Part shown: piece by piece, positions 8,475 through 14,895 of the stretch
How positions within the stretch are numbered: the stretch's first letter is position 1
How the letters are laid out: every line of letters begins with the position of its first letter
Assembly (NCBI GenBank): GCA_963708605.1
Contig: CAVPTG010000004.1
Coordinates: 250,900-314,899 of the forward strand
Origin: Candidatus Dormiibacterota bacterium
GTDB taxonomy: Bacteria > Chloroflexota > Dormibacteria > Aeolococcales > Aeolococcaceae
Length of the DNA stretch: 64,000 nt
Direction of reading: 5' to 3'
Notes under the pieces: model-generated
What the model was told of the DNA's origin: nothing
Database searches by the model: none
The model's input: only the letters and a program-made list of their open reading frames with translations
Position numbers and translations under genes: made by a program

Positions 8475-8885
8475 CAGCTCGCTGACTTTTCCAGCTTGAG
8501 CGCGCAGGAGTTCATGCAGAAGCGCTGGCCGGTCGGCTCGGGTCCGTCCGGGAAGACGTGGCCGAGGTGCCCGCCGCACTTGGCGCACCGGATCTCGGTG
8601 CGCGGGATGAGCATGCTCCAGTCCCGATGCTCCTCGACGACCCCGTTGCGAAGCGGCTCATAAAAGCTCGGCCAGCCGGTGCCGGAGTTCGAACTTGGTG
8701 TCGGAGCTGAACAGCTCGGCGCCGCAGCCGGCGCACGTGTAGACGCCCTTGTCGTTCACGTGGACGTACTGCCCGGTGAAGGGGCGTTCGGTGCTCGACT
8801 TGCGAAGCACGTTGTACTGCTCGGGCGTCAGACGCTGACGCCACTCGTCGTCGGTCAGGGTGACTTTCTCGTCCATGGTCTTCAC
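8474..8885 (-). CDS. msrB: Peptide-methionine (R)-S-oxide reductase MsrB (one apparent +1 frameshift at about 8688)
   Basis: [21 protein letters not shown], then [33 protein letters not shown] after removing one base of GAGTTC (8685-8690). The start overlaps the WYL gene stop (GTGA) and the stop overlaps the recQ start (TGATG). Confidence 0.9.
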
Positions 8886-9880
8886 TTTTTACCCCGTTTG
8901 GCAGGACTCGACGCATACAGTGCCGCGGCCGCCGCGTGGCTCTCCGCGATGTGGCGGCGCAGCGACTCGGGTTCGAGCACCTCGACGTTCGGACCCCATC
9001 GCATCAGCCATGGGCGCATCTCGACCTCGCCGGCCACGTCGAGGCGAACCTCGATGCCGCCCCCGGGAAGATCGGTTCGCCTGGCGTGCGCCGGCCAAGG
9101 GCTCTCGTCGACCCATTGGCGTGCCTCGGGGCTGAACCGCAGCACCACTCGATCCCCGCCGGCTCCCTGCCAGATCGCCCATGAGGCTCCGAGCACGGTG
9201 TCGATGTCGAAGTCGTCGGGCACCGCGAAGCTCGATGGGAGCAGCCGCGCCGCCCGGATCCGATCGAGCCGCAACGACCGCACCTCGTGCGACACCGAAT
9301 CGAGGGCGAAGACATAGATGTGCCGCCCCTCGGCTGTCGGCTGGATGAAGTAGGGGCGGAGATCGCGGCGGGTCTCGTTGCCCTTGGCGTCGACATATCG
9401 CACCTCGATCTCGCGATGGGTCACGAACCCGTCGATGACGGTGCGCTCGATCTTCAGGCGCTCGGCGTCGGCGGGCCGGCGTTCCGCTGCCGCCAACGTC
9501 CGGCGCAGGTACTCGCTCACCACCGGCACACTCAGCGCCCGGGACAGGTGGGCGAGGGCACCGACCAGTGCCGGGTCCTGTTCGGGGCGCACCTGCTGCA
9601 GGAGTTGCACCGCCACCAGGAGCAGCGTCGCCTGGTAATGGTCGAGCTGCAGGGGCGGGAGCAGGCTGCCCTTGCCGATGCGCCAGCGACCACCGGATTC
9701 CTCGACGTCGATACCGGCGTTGTCGCGCAGCGTCGCCACGTATCGCTGGACCGTGCGCGTGTTGACCTCGAGCTCCTCGGCAAGCTGCCGCGTGGTCAGG
9801 CCCACCTCGGTCTCGCAGAGGCGCGCGAACAGCTTGATGACCCGAAGCTCCTTCTCTCCCTTCTCGTAAACGCCTGGCAC
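8882..9880 (-). CDS. HTH-WYL-WCX transcriptional regulator (PafB/PafC/DriD-like)
   Basis: N-terminal HTH (LAEELEVNTRTVQRYVATL), WYL region (RDLRPYFI...IYVFALDSVSHEVRSLRLDRI), WCX tail (MRPWLMRWGPNVEVLEPESLR). The -10 TAGGCT lies 6 nt before the GTG. Confidence 0.9.
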   Translation of the reverse strand: MPGVYEKGEKELRVIKLFARLCETEVGLTTRQLAEELEVNTRTVQRYVATLRDNAGIDVEESGGRWRIGKGSLLPPLQLDHYQATLLLVAVQLLQQVRPEQDPALVGALAHLSRALSVPVVSEYLRRTLAAAERRPADAERLKIERTVIDGFVTHREIEVRYVDAKGNETRRDLRPYFIQPTAEGRHIYVFALDSVSHEVRSLRLDRIRAARLLPSSFAVPDDFDIDTVLGASWAIWQGAGGDRVVLRFSPEARQWVDESPWPAHARRTDLPGGGIEVRLDVAGEVEMRPWLMRWGPNVEVLEPESLRRHIAESHAAAAALYASSPAKRGKK

Positions 9881-9889
9881 GCAAGGAGC

Positions 9890-10417
9890 CTAGCGGGTCG
9901 TCCGGGCTTCCGAGTCGAGGGCAAGCGCATAACCGAGGAGCAGCGGCCCACCTTCTCGCTGCTGCGTCCCGGTCGGCTCGAAGCCAAGCTCCATGTAGAG
10001 CTGCTGCGCGCCGACCATGTTCGCTTCGGTGTCCAGCGTCATCACGCGCTTGCCACGGCGGCGAGCCATGTCGATGCAGGCGAGCATCAGGTGGCGGGCG
10101 ATGCCCCGGCCGCGGTGCTCGGGGCTGACGCCGAGCATGCGGATATGCGCTTCGCCGGCAGCCAGAGGATCGCTCGGGGCGGGACCGATCCGCGAATCGA
10201 GCTCGAGGGTGACCGAGCCGGCGATGACGCCCCGGTCGACGGCCACAAGAACCATCGACCGCTCGGCGCGGCTCCCGACGTCGGCGATCCGCGCCAGGTA
10301 CGGCTCCCAGCCGGGCTTGTCGGGCGTCCAGTACTCGCGGAACGCGCTCGCGGTGGCCGCCCCGACCGCCGTGTGCTCGGACGCCAGGAGCGGGCGGATC
10401 TCGATCTCATCGGACAC
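9890..10417 (-). CDS. GNAT family N-acetyltransferase
   Basis: IRMLGVSPEHRGRGIARHLM acetyl-CoA loop and AQQLYMELGF. GTG start at 10417, 7 nt after a TACGGT -10. Confidence 0.85.
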   Translation of the reverse strand: MSDEIEIRPLLASEHTAVGAATASAFREYWTPDKPGWEPYLARIADVGSRAERSMVLVAVDRGVIAGSVTLELDSRIGPAPSDPLAAGEAHIRMLGVSPEHRGRGIARHLMLACIDMARRRGKRVMTLDTEANMVGAQQLYMELGFEPTGTQQREGGPLLLGYALALDSEARTTR

Positions 10418-10471
10418 ATCCAAAACCGTACGCGACAGCCACCTGTCGCCGCCCCGGCGCATCGTCGTCGC

Positions 10472-10720
10472 ATGGACACACAGACTTCCGGCGCCGGCGA
10501 CCTCGGGATCACAGGTGATGGGCCCTACCTCCGGCGCGCGCAAGCGCTGCTTGCCGCTCGGGCCGAGCTCTTCGTCGCCGGGACGGCGCGTTCGATGCGG
10601 CTCGCCGGCTTGGCCGGCTCGCCGCAGGAGGAGGCTGCCGCGATCATGCGCCGGGGGCGGCAGCTGACCCTGCCGCTGCCGCGCGAACAAAGGCGCCGGC
10701 GAGCAAGGATGGTGCGCTGA
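10472..10720 (+). CDS. Small hypothetical protein (82 aa) with a QLTLPL motif near the C-terminus, translationally coupled to the TM0106 gene
   Basis: MDTQTSGAGD...IMRRGRQLTLPLPREQRRRRARMVR*. CATCGT -10-like element 6 nt upstream. Its TGA overlaps the next ATG (TGATG). It fills an otherwise empty 300-nt gap. Confidence 0.6.
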   Translation: MDTQTSGAGDLGITGDGPYLRRAQALLAARAELFVAGTARSMRLAGLAGSPQEEAAAIMRRGRQLTLPLPREQRRRRARMVR

Positions 10721-13700
10721 TGCGTTTCCTCCATGACGGCCGTCCGGTGTTCACCGCCACGGATCTCTGCGACTACCTGGCCTGCGGGCACCTCGTCGCG
10801 CTCAAGCGACGGGTCGCGGCCGGCGAGTCGATCCCGAGCGACCGTTCGGCGCTCAGCGAGGTGCTCGCGAACCTCGGCGCCGGGCACGAGCAGCGACACC
10901 TCGAGAGGCTCCGGGCTCGCGGCCAGCGCGTCAAGGCCTTCGAGGACGAGCGCGACCGATACGCGAGCACCGCCGCCGAGCTGGGCGCCCTCGAGGCGGA
11001 GACGGTCGCGGCGATGGGTGAGGGGTACGACGTCATCTATCAGCCCACGTTCTTCGACGGACGCTGGATGGGCCGCGCCGATTTTCTGCTTCGGGTGGAC
11101 ATGCCCAGCGCCCGGTGGGGCTGGAGCTACGAGGCGGCAGACGCGAAGCTTGCGCGGCGCGTCCGTTCCGAGGCCATCCTCCAGCTCTGCGAGTACTCGG
11201 CGCACCTCGAGCGGCTCCAGGGAACTGCGCCTCCGCATATGCACGTGGTCCTCGGCGACGGCAGCGAGCATGCGTATCGCCTTGACGAGTTCTCCGCATA
11301 CCACGCGAACGTGAAGCGTGATTTCGAGTTGGCCATGCTCGTCGAGGAGACCGCCACCTACCCCGATCCCGTCGCGCACTGCAACACGTGCGGTTTCGCG
11401 CCGCGCTGCGCCGCGGAGCGAAAGCGCGACGATCACCTTTCGCAGGTAGCCCGCATGCGCTCCGGTCAGGTGGTCGCGTTGACGTCGACCGGAATCAGCA
11501 CCATGACGGCACTCGCGGAGTTGTCCCGGGACGCCGATCCACCCGCACGCATGAGCATCACGAGCTTCCGCGAGCTCCACGCGCAGGCGGCACTGCAGCA
11601 CCGCGGGCCGCATGCCGGCGGTGTCCCGCGACACGAGTTGCTCGATGCATGGGAGGTCGGGCACGGTCTCTGCGCACTGCCGGCCCCATCTCCGGGCGAC
11701 CTCTTCTTCGACATGGAGGGCGACGGCCTCGCTCGCGATGTGCCGCTCGAATATCTCTTCGGCGTGGTCGACACGCGCGGCGAGTACCGCGCCTGGTGGG
11801 GCCACGACGAGGCGGGGGAGCGCCTCGCGTTTGAGGGGTTCGTCGACTTCGCGATCGCACAGCTCGAGCGCTTCCCCGACATGCACGTCTACCACTACGC
11901 GGCGTACGAGAAGACCGCGCTGCGCAGGCTGATGAGCCGGCACGGCACCCGCGAGGAGGAGGTCGATCGCCTGCTTCGCAACGAGGTGCTCGTCGATCTC
12001 TACCGTGTCGTCCGGCAGGGAATCCGGCTGTCAACGGACTCGTACTCGCTCAAGAAGGTCGAGCGCTTGTACATGCCCGCACGCGAGGAGTCGATCGCCG
12101 ACGCCGCGGGGAGCATGGTCATGTACGAGCGCTGGTTGATCAGTCGCGAAGATGGGAGCACGGGCAACGCGACGCTGCTCGACGAGATCGAGATGTACAA
12201 CCAGCGCGACTGCATCTCCACCGCGCAATTGCGCGACTGGCTCGAGGCGCGCCGCGTCGAGGAGGAGGCGCTCCGGGGCGCTCCCATCGAGCGTCCACCG
12301 ATCATCGAACGCGCGGTGAGTGACGCGTTGCAGGCGAAGATCGTCACGACCCAGGAGGTCGCGGTCGCGCTCGTCACCGACCTGCCGGCGGATCCCGAAA
12401 TGCGTACCGGTGCCGAACGAGCGCGATCGTTGCTTGCGCCACTTCTCTCGTACCACCGGCGCGAGAACAAGGTGAATTGGTGGCGTCATTTCGACCAGAT
12501 CGCAATGAGTCCGGAGGAGCTCGAGCGCGACACGTATGCGCTCGGACCGCTCGAGATGATCGGCTCCCGCGAGGATGGCCGCCGGATCATCGAGCGATAC
12601 CGCTTCGAGCCGCAGGAGCACCGGATCGGCATCGGCGACAAACCGCTCGACCCGGAGGCGGACGTGCGCTGGGCACCGGTTGCCGGCGAGGTCCTGGAGC
12701 TCGATGCCGCGCGCGGGGAGATCACGCTGTCGCGCACGCCTGGTCAGGCGGATCGCGGCGCGGTGCGTTTCCTGATCCCGTCCACGCCGCTACCGACGGA
12801 CGCGCAGGAGGAGGCGTTGCTCGACCTCGGGCGATGGGTCGCGGCCAATGGCCCGGATGCCACGGGCGCAAATCGCGCCGGGCGCGACCTGCTGATGCGC
12901 CTGCCGCCGCGTCTGCACGATGGCGCCGACCTCGAGTTTCGCGGGCTCGGTGAAACTGCGTCGGAGGCGGCGATCCGTCTGATCCTTGGCTTGGATCGCG
13001 GGTGCCTGCCGGTGCAGGGCCCGCCTGGCGCCGGCAAGACGCACATGGCTGCGCTTGCCGCACTCGCGCTCATCAAGCACCGGCGAGGCCCGATCGGCGT
13101 GACAGCGGTCACTCACAATGCGATTCGCACGCTCCTGGACAAGATCGAGGAGCTCGCGCCGTCTTTGGGCATGCAGGTCCGCATCCAGCACCGCAAAGGG
13201 GACGGCATCGGCACCGCATCGATCCAGATTGCTCGGAGCAATGACGCTGTCGAGGCTGCGCTCGCTGACGAAGCCGTCGACGTGGTCGGCGGGACCTCGT
13301 GGCTGTTCGCTCGCCGCGAGCTCCAGGGATCCTTCGACACGCTGATCGTCGACGAGGCCGGACAGATGTCACTGGCCGACGCGCTTGCGGTGTCGCGGGC
13401 GGCTCGCAACCTCGTCCTGGTCGGCGACCCGCGACAACTTGCGCAGCCGCTGCAGGGGAGCCATCCGCCCGGCGTCGGCGTTTCGGCGCTCGAGCACCTG
13501 CTCGGCGGCAATGTGACCATTCCTCCTGACCGCGGCGTGCTGCTCGACCTCACCTGGCGCATGCACCCGGCCGTGACCGGTTTCGTGTCGCGTTCGTTCT
13601 ACGAGGGGCGGCTCGGATCGGAAGCGCAGTGTTCGCGTCAGGCGGTGGTCCTCGATGGTGTCGCGGTCACCGGGCTGCGGGCGTCGTTTGTCGAGCATGA

Positions 13701-14184
13701 GGGCGACCGGGTCCGCTCTGATGCCGAGGCCGCGCGCGTGCGCGAGATCAGTGACCAGCTGACCATCGCAACGTGGCGGGACGCCACCGGCCACGAGCGC
13801 CGGATGACGTTCGAAGACATCGTTGTTGTCGCACCGTACAACGCGCAGGTCGCGTGTCTCGTCGAGGCGTTGCCGGTCGGCGCGCGGGTTGGCACCGTCG
13901 ATCGCTTTCAGGGACAGGAGGCCGCGGTGAGCATCTTCTCCATGGCCACGTCCAGCGTCGAAGACCTGCCCCGCAACCTCGAATTCCTCTTCAGCCTCAA
14001 CCGCCTCAACGTGGCCGTGTCCCGGGCGCGCGGACTTTCGATCCTGGTCTGCTCGCCCGAACTACTCCGCGCACGCTGCCACTCGCCGGAGCAGATGCGG
14101 CTCGTCAACGCGCTCTGCCGGTTTGTGGAGATGGCCGAACCTTGGATCGTCACGCCGGTGCCCGCAGCTATGCTGCCGGCGTGA
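10720..14184 (+). CDS. TM0106-family RecB/Cas4-like nuclease fused to an RNase H-like/DEDD domain and a C-terminal SF1 (Upf1/Dna2-like) helicase
   Basis: GRADFLL..DAK..QLCEY nuclease core; N-terminal Cys plus CNTCGFAPRC; FFDMEGD..HYAAYE..VDLY..SYSLKKVE..YNQRDC; helicase motifs QGPPGAGKT, DEAGQ, GDPRQL, RMHP, TVDRFQGQE, RLNVAVSRAR. Confidence 0.85.
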   Translation: MRFLHDGRPVFTATDLCDYLACGHLVALKRRVAAGESIPSDRSALSEVLANLGAGHEQRHLERLRARGQRVKAFEDERDRYASTAAELGALEAETVAAMGEGYDVIYQPTFFDGRWMGRADFLLRVDMPSARWGWSYEAADAKLARRVRSEAILQLCEYSAHLERLQGTAPPHMHVVLGDGSEHAYRLDEFSAYHANVKRDFELAMLVEETATYPDPVAHCNTCGFAPRCAAERKRDDHLSQVARMRSGQVVALTSTGISTMTALAELSRDADPPARMSITSFRELHAQAALQHRGPHAGGVPRHELLDAWEVGHGLCALPAPSPGDLFFDMEGDGLARDVPLEYLFGVVDTRGEYRAWWGHDEAGERLAFEGFVDFAIAQLERFPDMHVYHYAAYEKTALRRLMSRHGTREEEVDRLLRNEVLVDLYRVVRQGIRLSTDSYSLKKVERLYMPAREESIADAAGSMVMYERWLISREDGSTGNATLLDEIEMYNQRDCISTAQLRDWLEARRVEEEALRGAPIERPPIIERAVSDALQAKIVTTQEVAVALVTDLPADPEMRTGAERARSLLAPLLSYHRRENKVNWWRHFDQIAMSPEELERDTYALGPLEMIGSREDGRRIIERYRFEPQEHRIGIGDKPLDPEADVRWAPVAGEVLELDAARGEITLSRTPGQADRGAVRFLIPSTPLPTDAQEEALLDLGRWVAANGPDATGANRAGRDLLMRLPPRLHDGADLEFRGLGETASEAAIRLILGLDRGCLPVQGPPGAGKTHMAALAALALIKHRRGPIGVTAVTHNAIRTLLDKIEELAPSLGMQVRIQHRKGDGIGTASIQIARSNDAVEAALADEAVDVVGGTSWLFARRELQGSFDTLIVDEAGQMSLADALAVSRAARNLVLVGDPRQLAQPLQGSHPPGVGVSALEHLLGGNVTIPPDRGVLLDLTWRMHPAVTGFVSRSFYEGRLGSEAQCSRQAVVLDGVAVTGLRASFVEHEGDRVRSDAEAARVREISDQLTIATWRDATGHERRMTFEDIVVVAPYNAQVACLVEALPVGARVGTVDRFQGQEAAVSIFSMATSSVEDLPRNLEFLFSLNRLNVAVSRARGLSILVCSPELLRARCHSPEQMRLVNALCRFVEMAEPWIVTPVPAAMLPA

Positions 14185-14895
14185 CTGACGATTCCCTCAA
14201 GGACCGGCTCGTGCGGTCGCTCGTTGCCGCGCGCGAGCGGGAGGCTCTGCTCCTCGCTCTGGTGGACGACCCGCCGGCCGCCGAATATGGGCAATGGACC
14301 GCAAAAGACAACATCGCGCATCTCAACGCCTGGCGTCAACATGCCGTGCGCGCGCTCGTTGCTGCGCAGCAGGGGACCGCTTTCGAGGGGCCGGCCAATG
14401 ACACCGACCTCGACGCGCGAAATGCCGAGATCTACGAAGAGCATCGCGACGACAGCGCCGCCACCGTACGCACGACCGCCGTCGAGAGCTACACGGTGCT
14501 CATCGACGCGGTCATTGCGTGCTCCGACGCGGATCTGTTGCGCGAACGCCCTGACAATGGTGGGCCCGTGTGGCGCGTTGTTCCGGGCAACGGCCATGCT
14601 CATGTGGCCCAGCACCTCTCGTACTGGGCAGTCGCACACGCCGATCCCGTCGCGGCGGAGGAGGCCGCGAGGTGGAGTTACGCGATCGAACTCTGAGTTG
14701 TTCCCCGACAACCAGCCCATTGCCGACTACAACTTCGCCTGTTTCTACGCGCGCAACGGCGATGCCGACAGAGCCTTGCCGCTGCTCAGCACCGCGCTGC
14801 GCGCTCGTCCCGAACTTCGCGCTTTCGCGCTCGAAGATGCGGACATCGAGCCGATTCGCGACGACCCACGGGTGGAAAGCCTCATCGGCCCCTGA
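14181..14895 (+). CDS. DinB/ClbS-like four-helix protein with a C-terminal TPR-like repeat (one apparent +1 frameshift at about 14690)
   Basis: WTAKDNIAHLNAW DinB-type motif and GNGHAH. Removing one base of GAACTC (14688-14693) joins it to DYNFACFYARNGDADRAL...ALEDAD. The GTG overlaps the upstream TGA, and TATGCT lies 6 nt upstream. Confidence 0.65.

Follow-up and report, generated by a model that had tools for sequence, protein, structure and literature searches.

A conserved miniprotein with a sliding-clamp-type motif encoded next to a TM0106-family nuclease-helicase in Dormibacteria

We analysed a 64,000-nucleotide stretch of DNA (the window), which is a piece of contig G000:C4 in a 3.0-Mb Dormibacteria metagenome-assembled genome that is about 80% complete, and in it a short open reading frame (ORF) of 82 codons, ORF82, placed directly upstream of a gene for a TM0106-family nuclease fused to a superfamily 1 (SF1) helicase. 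ORF82 is a real gene, two blocks of which are under purifying selection at the amino-acid level: an amphipathic helix, and a short motif near the C-terminus of the type by which proteins dock onto the DnaN sliding clamp. The best reading of its function, which we offer tentatively and would not yet call probable, is that of a damage-induced clamp-docking miniprotein that would hold a partner from its own operon at clamp-marked DNA.

A small gene under amino-acid-level selection

The ORF track assigns the region to a single 477-aa ORF (9287..10720, plus strand), which runs antisense to the genes for a GNAT acetyltransferase and an HTH-WYL-WCX regulator, both well matched in Pfam, and for which no Pfam or other family match was found. 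Its GC content at the three codon positions (0.85/0.50/0.75) is non-coding-like, the first position exceeding the third; over the 82 codons at its end, which occupy the space separating the GNAT and nuclease-helicase genes, the values are coding-like (0.76/0.61/0.82). The 477-aa call is an antisense artefact, and the gene consists of the final 82 codons only, so that the practical gain is the correction of a wrong gene call. A sequence-only reading of the window had already singled out this ORF as the tail of the longer one, starting at the ATG at 10472 and ending in a TGATG overlap with the TM0106 gene, and its coordinates could be verified: the TGA of ORF82 (10718-10720) shares bases with the ATG of the TM0106 gene at 10720-10722. 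The C-terminal part of the peptide, RRGRQLTLPLPREQRRRRARMVR before the stop, contains RGRQLTLPL and a basic tail, just as that reading had described.

Of 24 other genomes in the genus that were searched in six frames, 22 contain ORF82 unbroken, with identities of 46-76%. A collection of 5.8 billion proteins yielded 64 homologues of 70-83 aa, all annotated as “hypothetical”, and a profile search of 1.8 billion representatives returned 19 clusters at 50% identity, all belonging to one family, and no cluster outside Dormibacteria-type contexts. The distinct homologues number about 80, all from Dormibacteria; ORF82 is a protein of the uncultured soil members of this group. A phylum-level genome scan with the ORF82 profile added nothing further, at the limited sensitivity set by scoring 27 candidates per genome, and there was no match to ORF82 in Pfam, NCBIfam, PADLOC, a PDB profile search or Rfam.

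Codon alignment of 21 orthologues shows the ORF82 frame open in every one of them, while four of the five alternative frames carry stops in 11-16 of the 21, and one antisense frame carries them in three. Nonsynonymous divergence per site (pN) is lower than synonymous divergence (pS) in all 210 pairwise comparisons, with a mean pN/pS of 0.56, and the constraint is concentrated in two blocks: the ratio is 0.74 in the N-terminus, 0.30 in the helix, 0.77 in the linker, 0.27 in the motif and 0.48 in the tail. At each invariant residue, including the R, Q, L and P of the motif, two to four synonymous codons are in use, so that the invariance cannot be explained at the DNA or RNA level alone. Both modules are retained in homologues with only 26-32% overall identity, and the ORFs found upstream of helicases that are 50-55% identical at other Dormibacteria loci keep them as well.

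Several other sources of conservation were considered and rejected. The synonymous turnover speaks against an RNA or DNA element, Rfam gave no match, and only the last codons are co-constrained by the downstream Shine-Dalgarno-like site. Conservation imposed by an antisense gene was dismissed because, in the antisense frame whose pN/pS is comparable, 11 of the 21 orthologues are interrupted by stops. Nor does ORF82 behave as a regulatory leader peptide or upstream ORF, the peptide of which would be unconserved, as two of its blocks are selected at the amino-acid level. The 68.6% GC content of the window, with its many long shadow ORFs, and the lack of a separate call in the ORF track might suggest a spurious ORF, namely an intergenic stretch of high GC that happens to lack stops; this is effectively refuted by a frame open in all orthologues, by codon-level selection and by a family of some 80 sequences of conserved length.

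The helix and the clamp-type motif

The most conserved element of ORF82 is the heptapeptide RQLTLPL. The pattern QL.LP[LI] occurs in 79 of 80 distinct homologues (QLTLPL in 49, QLSLPL in 17, QLALPL in 5, QLRLPL in 4, QLSLPI in 3 and QLRLPI in 1), the sole homologue without it being a frameshifted read-through product, and in 77 of the 79 it is preceded by Arg. The conservation of the ORF and of its motif, which the sequence-only reading had proposed as a test of its case, is thereby confirmed. The distance from the motif to the C-terminus varies between 5 and 18 residues among homologues; in ORF82 it is 13, and the basic tail follows the motif. An AlphaFold2 model built with the family alignment shows no secondary structure in the motif region, where the predicted local distance difference test score (pLDDT) is about 65, disorder being read here from a low-confidence model.

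The E. coli Pol IV C-terminus, RQLVLGL, represents the hexameric class of clamp-binding motifs, and the ORF82 motif fits this class, QLxLxL. Another member, QLSLPL, by which E. coli Hda binds the clamp, serves as a tight-binding reference, the peptide PAQLSLPLYL having a dissociation constant of 0.38 uM (PMC11139829; PMC12309361; PMC3664792), while the general clamp consensus is QL[S/D]LF according to Dalrymple 2001 as cited in PMC11139829. Seventeen homologues thus read exactly as Hda does. The same genome encodes a canonical DnaN (C12:120392-121564; PF02768 hit of 96 bits at C12:120398-120757), with a full-length match to solved beta clamps at E = 2e-55, and a Pol IV with QLDLF in its usual place, directly after the IMS_C (little-finger) domain. 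Taken alone, however, QL.LP[LI] occurs near the chance level, with six instances in the 3.0-Mb genome when all six-frame ORFs of 60 aa or more are counted. Because the string by itself is common, the clamp argument draws on its invariance, its position in a disordered tail and its context, and not on the match itself. What the sequence-only reading called a sliding-clamp-like motif therefore holds as a match to the hexameric class that is invariant in the family, and does not hold as a signature specific in its own right. In the course of this work we also noted a DUF72 protein (G000:C12:96742-97782, plus strand; Pfam, 182 bits) the extreme C-terminus of which reads GGNQLTLSL, a possible unrecognised clamp client.

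The second block corresponds to an amphipathic helix that is found family-wide as YLRRAQALLAARAELF. In the AlphaFold2 model, a helix spanning residues 18-47 is the only confident element (pLDDT 88 at residues 21-30); a short helix follows at 51-57, and the remainder is of low confidence, with a mean pLDDT of 63. To judge from their i, i+3/4, i+7 spacing, the invariant residues Y19, R22, L26, L33 and F34 share one helical face, and the block is presumed to form a second interaction surface. To judge from sequence and prediction, the family pattern is that of a disordered protein with one helix and one short linear motif.

Operon context, promoter and possible function

ORF82 lies in a cassette with the gene order WYL (-), GNAT (-) / ORF82 (+), TM0106-helicase (+), DinB-like DUF1706/TPR (+), which at assessable Dormibacteria loci is retained down to 50% identity of the TM0106 protein. 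The link of ORF82 to the WYL-GNAT pair is always kept, and those to TM0106 and DUF1706 nearly always, so that the only invariable neighbours of the miniprotein are the promoter and the WYL-GNAT pair. Among assessable species-representative Dormibacteria TM0106 loci, 37 of 39 encode an undamaged miniprotein that bears QLxLP[L/I/M] (36 under the strict pattern, to which QLTLPM in L068 was added). Linkage to TM0106, which the sequence-only reading had also put forward for checking, is therefore confirmed as a strong tendency, and each of the two genes is also found without the other; as far as gene order can tell, the partnership is frequent and not obligatory. A database protein, P0074 (129 aa), in which the N-terminal half of the miniprotein is fused through a frame change to the N-terminus of TM0106, is probably the product of a sequencing error.

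The stop-start overlap with the next gene is conserved at all loci. AGGATG ahead of the TM0106 start is conserved within the genus, and the invariance of A78 and M80 is in part due to this ribosome-binding site, which overlaps their codons; deeper lineages have no Shine-Dalgarno sequence and possess the TGATG overlap alone, so that translation of TM0106 should depend there on ribosomes arriving from the miniprotein. One could therefore suppose that ORF82 serves for coupling only, ribosomes loaded at the 5′ end of the mRNA terminating at TGATG and reinitiating there on TM0106, and that its peptide is functionless: such a role would agree with the universal overlap, with the missing Shine-Dalgarno sequence in deeper lineages, with the leaderless geometry described below and with the near-neutral N-terminus and linker. 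We regard it as very improbable in view of the two blocks with pN/pS of 0.27-0.30 and synonymous turnover, of a length and architecture conserved down to 26-32% identity, and of the retention of the ORF where the downstream gene is a different one.

The helicases themselves offer a further clue. In deeper lineages (L055, L061, L062, L063, L073 and L112) their C-terminal tails carry QLSLLP (twice), QLPLLM, QLSLLA, QLLLPA and QLALVP, and the helicase of the window's genus, which ends in AMLPA, has no tail motif. The presence of the same type of motif on two co-transcribed proteins suggests a shared docking site.

Upstream of ORF82, the sequence TGTCGC-N10-CATCGT-N6-ATG, the first element of which falls in the right half of a perfect palindrome, has the geometry of a PafBC promoter, for which a consensus of tGTCgg(N10)tA(N3)T was described, comprising a -26 element and lacking a -35 (PMC8635444). 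All orthologous loci keep the palindrome arms, the N10 spacing, the hexamer as [C/G]AnnnT and 6-7 nt to an ATG or GTG, while the bases in between vary, which speaks for the start codon as well as for a leaderless transcript; the latter is also implied by the hexamer standing 6 nt before the start. The -10-like element that the sequence-only reading had seen at this distance from the ATG is this very hexamer, CATCGT, and belongs to the conserved promoter. A generic sigma-70 scan detected no -35/-10 pair, as expected of a promoter without a -35 element. The region is covered by metatranscriptome contigs in Logan that come from relatives and are 90-95% identical; these are unstranded, lack the 5′ end and may derive from DNA, and were not used as support for a leaderless start. 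A PafBC-type promoter on the minus strand that would use the palindrome's other half to drive GNAT was also looked for, and by our reading no acceptable -10 was present at the right spacing. At L043 and L044 (equivalent to the G019 locus L022), the GNAT and miniprotein genes are separated by an insert of about 1.5 kb, on the miniprotein side of which the palindrome and promoter are found.

The adjacent WYL regulator is 77-97% identical across the genus and never separated from the cassette. The 12-base core CGACAG-N4-CTGTCG has four perfect copies in the genome, where we would estimate about 0.35 by chance, and the three other copies also precede N10, cAnnnT, N6 and ATG. The genes that follow them are those for a 960-aa UvrD-PD-(D/E)XK (AddA/AdnB-like) helicase-nuclease (G000:C8:27578-30460, minus strand) and two ORFs of about 118 aa to which no function was assigned (C6:3979-4335, plus; C7:191150-191503, plus). 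Repetition of both the palindrome and the promoter geometry points to a small candidate WYL-controlled, probably damage-induced, leaderless repair regulon, and, by analogy with known WYL activators, the operon is probably switched on by the neighbouring WYL factor under genotoxic stress.

These observations can be assembled into the following scheme. Genotoxic stress would activate the WYL factor, and RNA polymerase would start at the ORF82 ATG to give a leaderless mRNA, from which the miniprotein and the TM0106 nuclease-SF1 helicase would be made 1:1, coupled via the TGATG overlap. The RQLxLP[L/I] motif would then insert into the hydrophobic cleft of DnaN, in the manner of the Hda (QLSLPL) and Pol IV (RQLVLGL) motifs, and the helix YLRRAQALLAARAELF would bind another partner, most likely the TM0106 nuclease-helicase and/or the DinB-like/TPR protein. 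As an outcome, repair enzymes would be concentrated on clamp-marked DNA, such as stalled forks or gaps. In this scheme, we infer that damage induces the operon, that the motif binds the clamp and which protein the helix contacts. More doubtful is its narrower form, that of a dedicated trans-acting mini-adaptor under WYL (SOS-independent) control, placing its Hda-type motif on clamps and holding a Dna2-like nuclease-helicase and/or the DinB-TPR protein by its helix; if true, it would be a minimal non-polymerase analogue of ImuB, serving a clamp-guided pathway of end or flap processing.

A number of observations weigh against the clamp-docking scheme, and against the dedicated adaptor in particular. 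Genomes of the G002 type (L109/L110 in G002:C8; L108) have no TM0106 and retain the miniprotein (76-82 aa in two diverged species, with the helix and QLxLPL intact and the basic tail lost), its gene directly preceding the DinB-like gene. Conversely, in G004 (L115 / L053, G004:C9) the promoter, the stop-start overlap and TM0106 are all kept, and the miniprotein has been cut to 25 aa (MDRETSAPDGTVPEDHGQHFARMLG) by in-frame loss of about 57 codons; at L048 the miniprotein copy is disrupted. At 32 TM0106-helicase loci of other phyla, the upstream regions contain no equivalent small ORF or motif. An adaptor would be unnecessary in the deeper lineages, as the helicase there bears a QLxL[L/V]-like motif of its own. 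Furthermore, a bare QLxLxL string is not specific, and damage induction is argued by promoter analogy only. The adaptor idea of the sequence-only reading thus survives in part: the coupled gene is genuine and has two modules and a conserved clamp-type motif, but a dedicated TM0106 adaptor is hard to reconcile with two proteins that are separable and with a tail motif on the helicase itself.

The separability of the two genes can also be read in another way, in which the miniprotein recruits nothing and acts as a clamp blocker or checkpoint: induced by damage, it would outcompete Pol III and other clients for the cleft, so that replication is slowed or clamps are cleared for repair, as with clamp-targeting toxins, phage peptides and the UmuD2C checkpoint. 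Its motif is in the tightest known class, both modules are retained in genomes without TM0106, it is encoded first on a transcript that is putatively damage-induced, and some helicase orthologues have a weaker-looking motif of their own, which makes competition or hand-over conceivable. We nevertheless consider a blocker unlikely, since it leaves unexplained both the conserved helix face (Y19, R22, L26, L33, F34) and the strict stop-start coupling to the next gene.

It is also rather unlikely, if slightly less so, that the miniprotein is no clamp client at all, its motif and helix contacting some other protein and the resemblance to clamp motifs being coincidental; it could then, for instance, regulate the nuclease-helicase as a small subunit or inhibit it, serve as ligand to the TPR-like module of the DinB-like protein, or act in a feedback loop with the WYL regulator or with GNAT. 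The constant linkage to WYL-GNAT and the near-constant linkage to TM0106 and DUF1706 would fit such a role, as would the chance occurrence of QL.LP[LI] strings at about the genome-wide rate, and TPR-like modules commonly bind short peptides. This explanation has to contend with the exact match of 17 homologues to a well-defined motif, with the position of the motif in a disordered tail and in a DNA-repair operon, with its flanking Arg, as in the RQLVLGL of Pol IV, with similar QLxL[L/V] motifs on helicase tails of sister lineages, and with the persistence of the motif without TM0106 and without DUF1706 (L112, L059, L062).

Table 1. Features of the ORF82 locus (coordinates within the window; a dot marks a feature assigned to neither strand)
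Feature	Coordinates	Strand	Remarks
HTH_11-WYL-WCX transcription factor	8882..9880	-	Pfam WCX, WYL, HTH_11; PafB/PafC/SiwR/DriD architecture
GNAT acetyltransferase	9890..10417	-	Pfam Acetyltransf_1; divergent
Palindrome GCGACAG-N4-CTGTCGC	10432..10449	.	Perfect; sole match in the window (0.07 expected); putative operator of the WYL regulator
TGTCGC, “-26 element” of PafBC/SiwR type	10444..10449	+	In the right half of the palindrome; spacing kept in relatives
-10-like hexamer CATCGT (cAnnnT)	10460..10465	+	6 nt 5′ of the ATG
ORF82 gene (82-aa miniprotein)	10472..10720	+	Start ATG 10472, stop TGA 10718-10720; open frame
Amphipathic helix block DGPYLRRAQALLAARAELF, residues 16-34	10517..10573	+	Invariant Y19, R22, L26, L33, F34; pN/pS 0.30
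RQLTLPL, clamp-binding-type hexapeptide, residues 63-69	10658..10678	+	Invariant Q64, L65, L67, P68; pN/pS 0.27
AAGGA, Shine-Dalgarno-like site for TM0106	10705..10709	+	Within the tail codons of the miniprotein (RARM)
TM0106-family nuclease (Cas4-like + RNase_H_2) fused to SF1 helicase, 1154 aa	10720..14184	+	TIGR03491; Pfam RNase_H_2, AAA_11, AAA_12
DinB-like (DUF1706) + TPR-like gene, third of the operon	14181..14895	+	Orthologue of 239 aa, intact in L109 and L031

The coordinates of the locus are given in Table 1. The TIGR03491 match of the nuclease-helicase scores 248.8 bits over residues 12-508, the cut-off being 97.45, and no mention of the TM0106 protein family was found in the literature searched. 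The DinB-like/TPR gene is broken by a 1-nt insertion near 14690 (about 14680-14700), after which it reads WSYAIEL and a stop, as opposed to WSYAIDSELFPDNQ... in the orthologue; the frameshift is either an assembly error or the mark of a pseudogene. On the other side, the GNAT gene most likely starts, by comparison of sequences, at the GTG at 10417 and not at the ATG at 10462, giving an intergenic region of 54 nt: alignments with orthologues begin at residues 14-18 of the longer ORF, the orthologue called in L109 starts with MPDDLEI, and the constancy of the CAT at 10460-10462 is accounted for by the -10 hexamer of the promoter on the facing strand, to which it belongs. In L109, the WYL gene is followed on the minus strand by msrB (SelR) and recQ.

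Comparison with known systems

The motif of ORF82 is of the same hexapeptide class, Q-L-x-L-x-L, as those of Hda and Pol IV, and like them is situated in a disordered terminal segment. In Hda it is N-terminal and followed by an AAA+ domain, whereas in ORF82 it is C-terminal and there is no domain match; the miniprotein is unrelated in sequence to Hda and to Y-family polymerases, and has neither an enzymatic nor an AAA+ domain. Clamp-binding motifs are normally part of enzymes, from which a free-standing miniprotein composed of a helix and a top-affinity clamp motif would, if the clamp-docking reading is true, be a departure, and, standing first in a damage-controlled operon for a Dna2-like nuclease-helicase, it would show how a tiny accessory gene lets bacteria connect new repair machines to the replisome hub, or restrain that hub.

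A parallel in cassette layout is ImuB of the ImuA′-ImuB-DnaE2 system, a non-catalytic clamp adaptor that bridges the clamp to the catalytic DnaE2 of the same cassette. For ORF82, such a bridging role is a proposal, and damage induction is assumed by analogy. In PMC10421592, ImuB is presented as a component of a damage-inducible mutasome together with DnaE2. ImuB is an inactive Y-family polymerase of about 500 aa, a fold that the 82-aa one-helix miniprotein does not share, and its partner is a polymerase, whereas that of ORF82 would be a nuclease-helicase. With respect to a second interface like that of ImuB, a second conserved module is present in the helix, and the miniprotein and TM0106 each occur without the other.

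A direct tie between end processing and the clamp has recently been reported in E. coli, where RecB of RecBCD binds the beta clamp (bioRxiv 10.1101/2025.08.20.671105). In both RecBCD and the scheme proposed here, a clamp-binding motif connects the beta clamp with a helicase-nuclease that processes DNA ends; the RecB motif, QVEMEF, however, lies inside the nuclease domain of the enzyme itself, and here a separate, co-translated miniprotein carries the motif, as does the helicase tail in deeper lineages. The uncharacterised TM0106 family of nuclease-helicases gains from the locus a cellular context that can be tested.

In its regulatory layout, the locus is, by analogy, a new member of the PafBC/SiwR/DriD kind, which comprises WYL-domain activators of SOS-independent damage responses (PMC10693628, PMC8635444, PMC11804915). 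The -26 element combined with a -10 and no -35 is found here too, and the predicted targets are repair enzymes, as for PafBC. PafBC is heterodimeric and has a non-palindromic site, whereas the single WYL gene and perfect palindrome seen here are closer to homodimeric SiwR or DriD. Among these, SiwR of M. smegmatis, a homodimeric WYL factor induced by genotoxic stress and studied experimentally, has a DinB-like target (PMC10693628); its single divergent HTH-WYL-WCX gene, the palindrome at the -26 region and the DinB-like target are all repeated at the ORF82 locus. The known hosts of SiwR, PafBC and DriD are Actinobacteria or Caulobacter, whereas here the host belongs to Dormibacteria, the miniprotein comes first in the target operon, and regulation is read from the DNA sequence. 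If the prediction is correct, WYL/-26-type, SOS-independent damage regulation and the leaderless operon design that goes with it extend to an uncultured lineage of phylum level.

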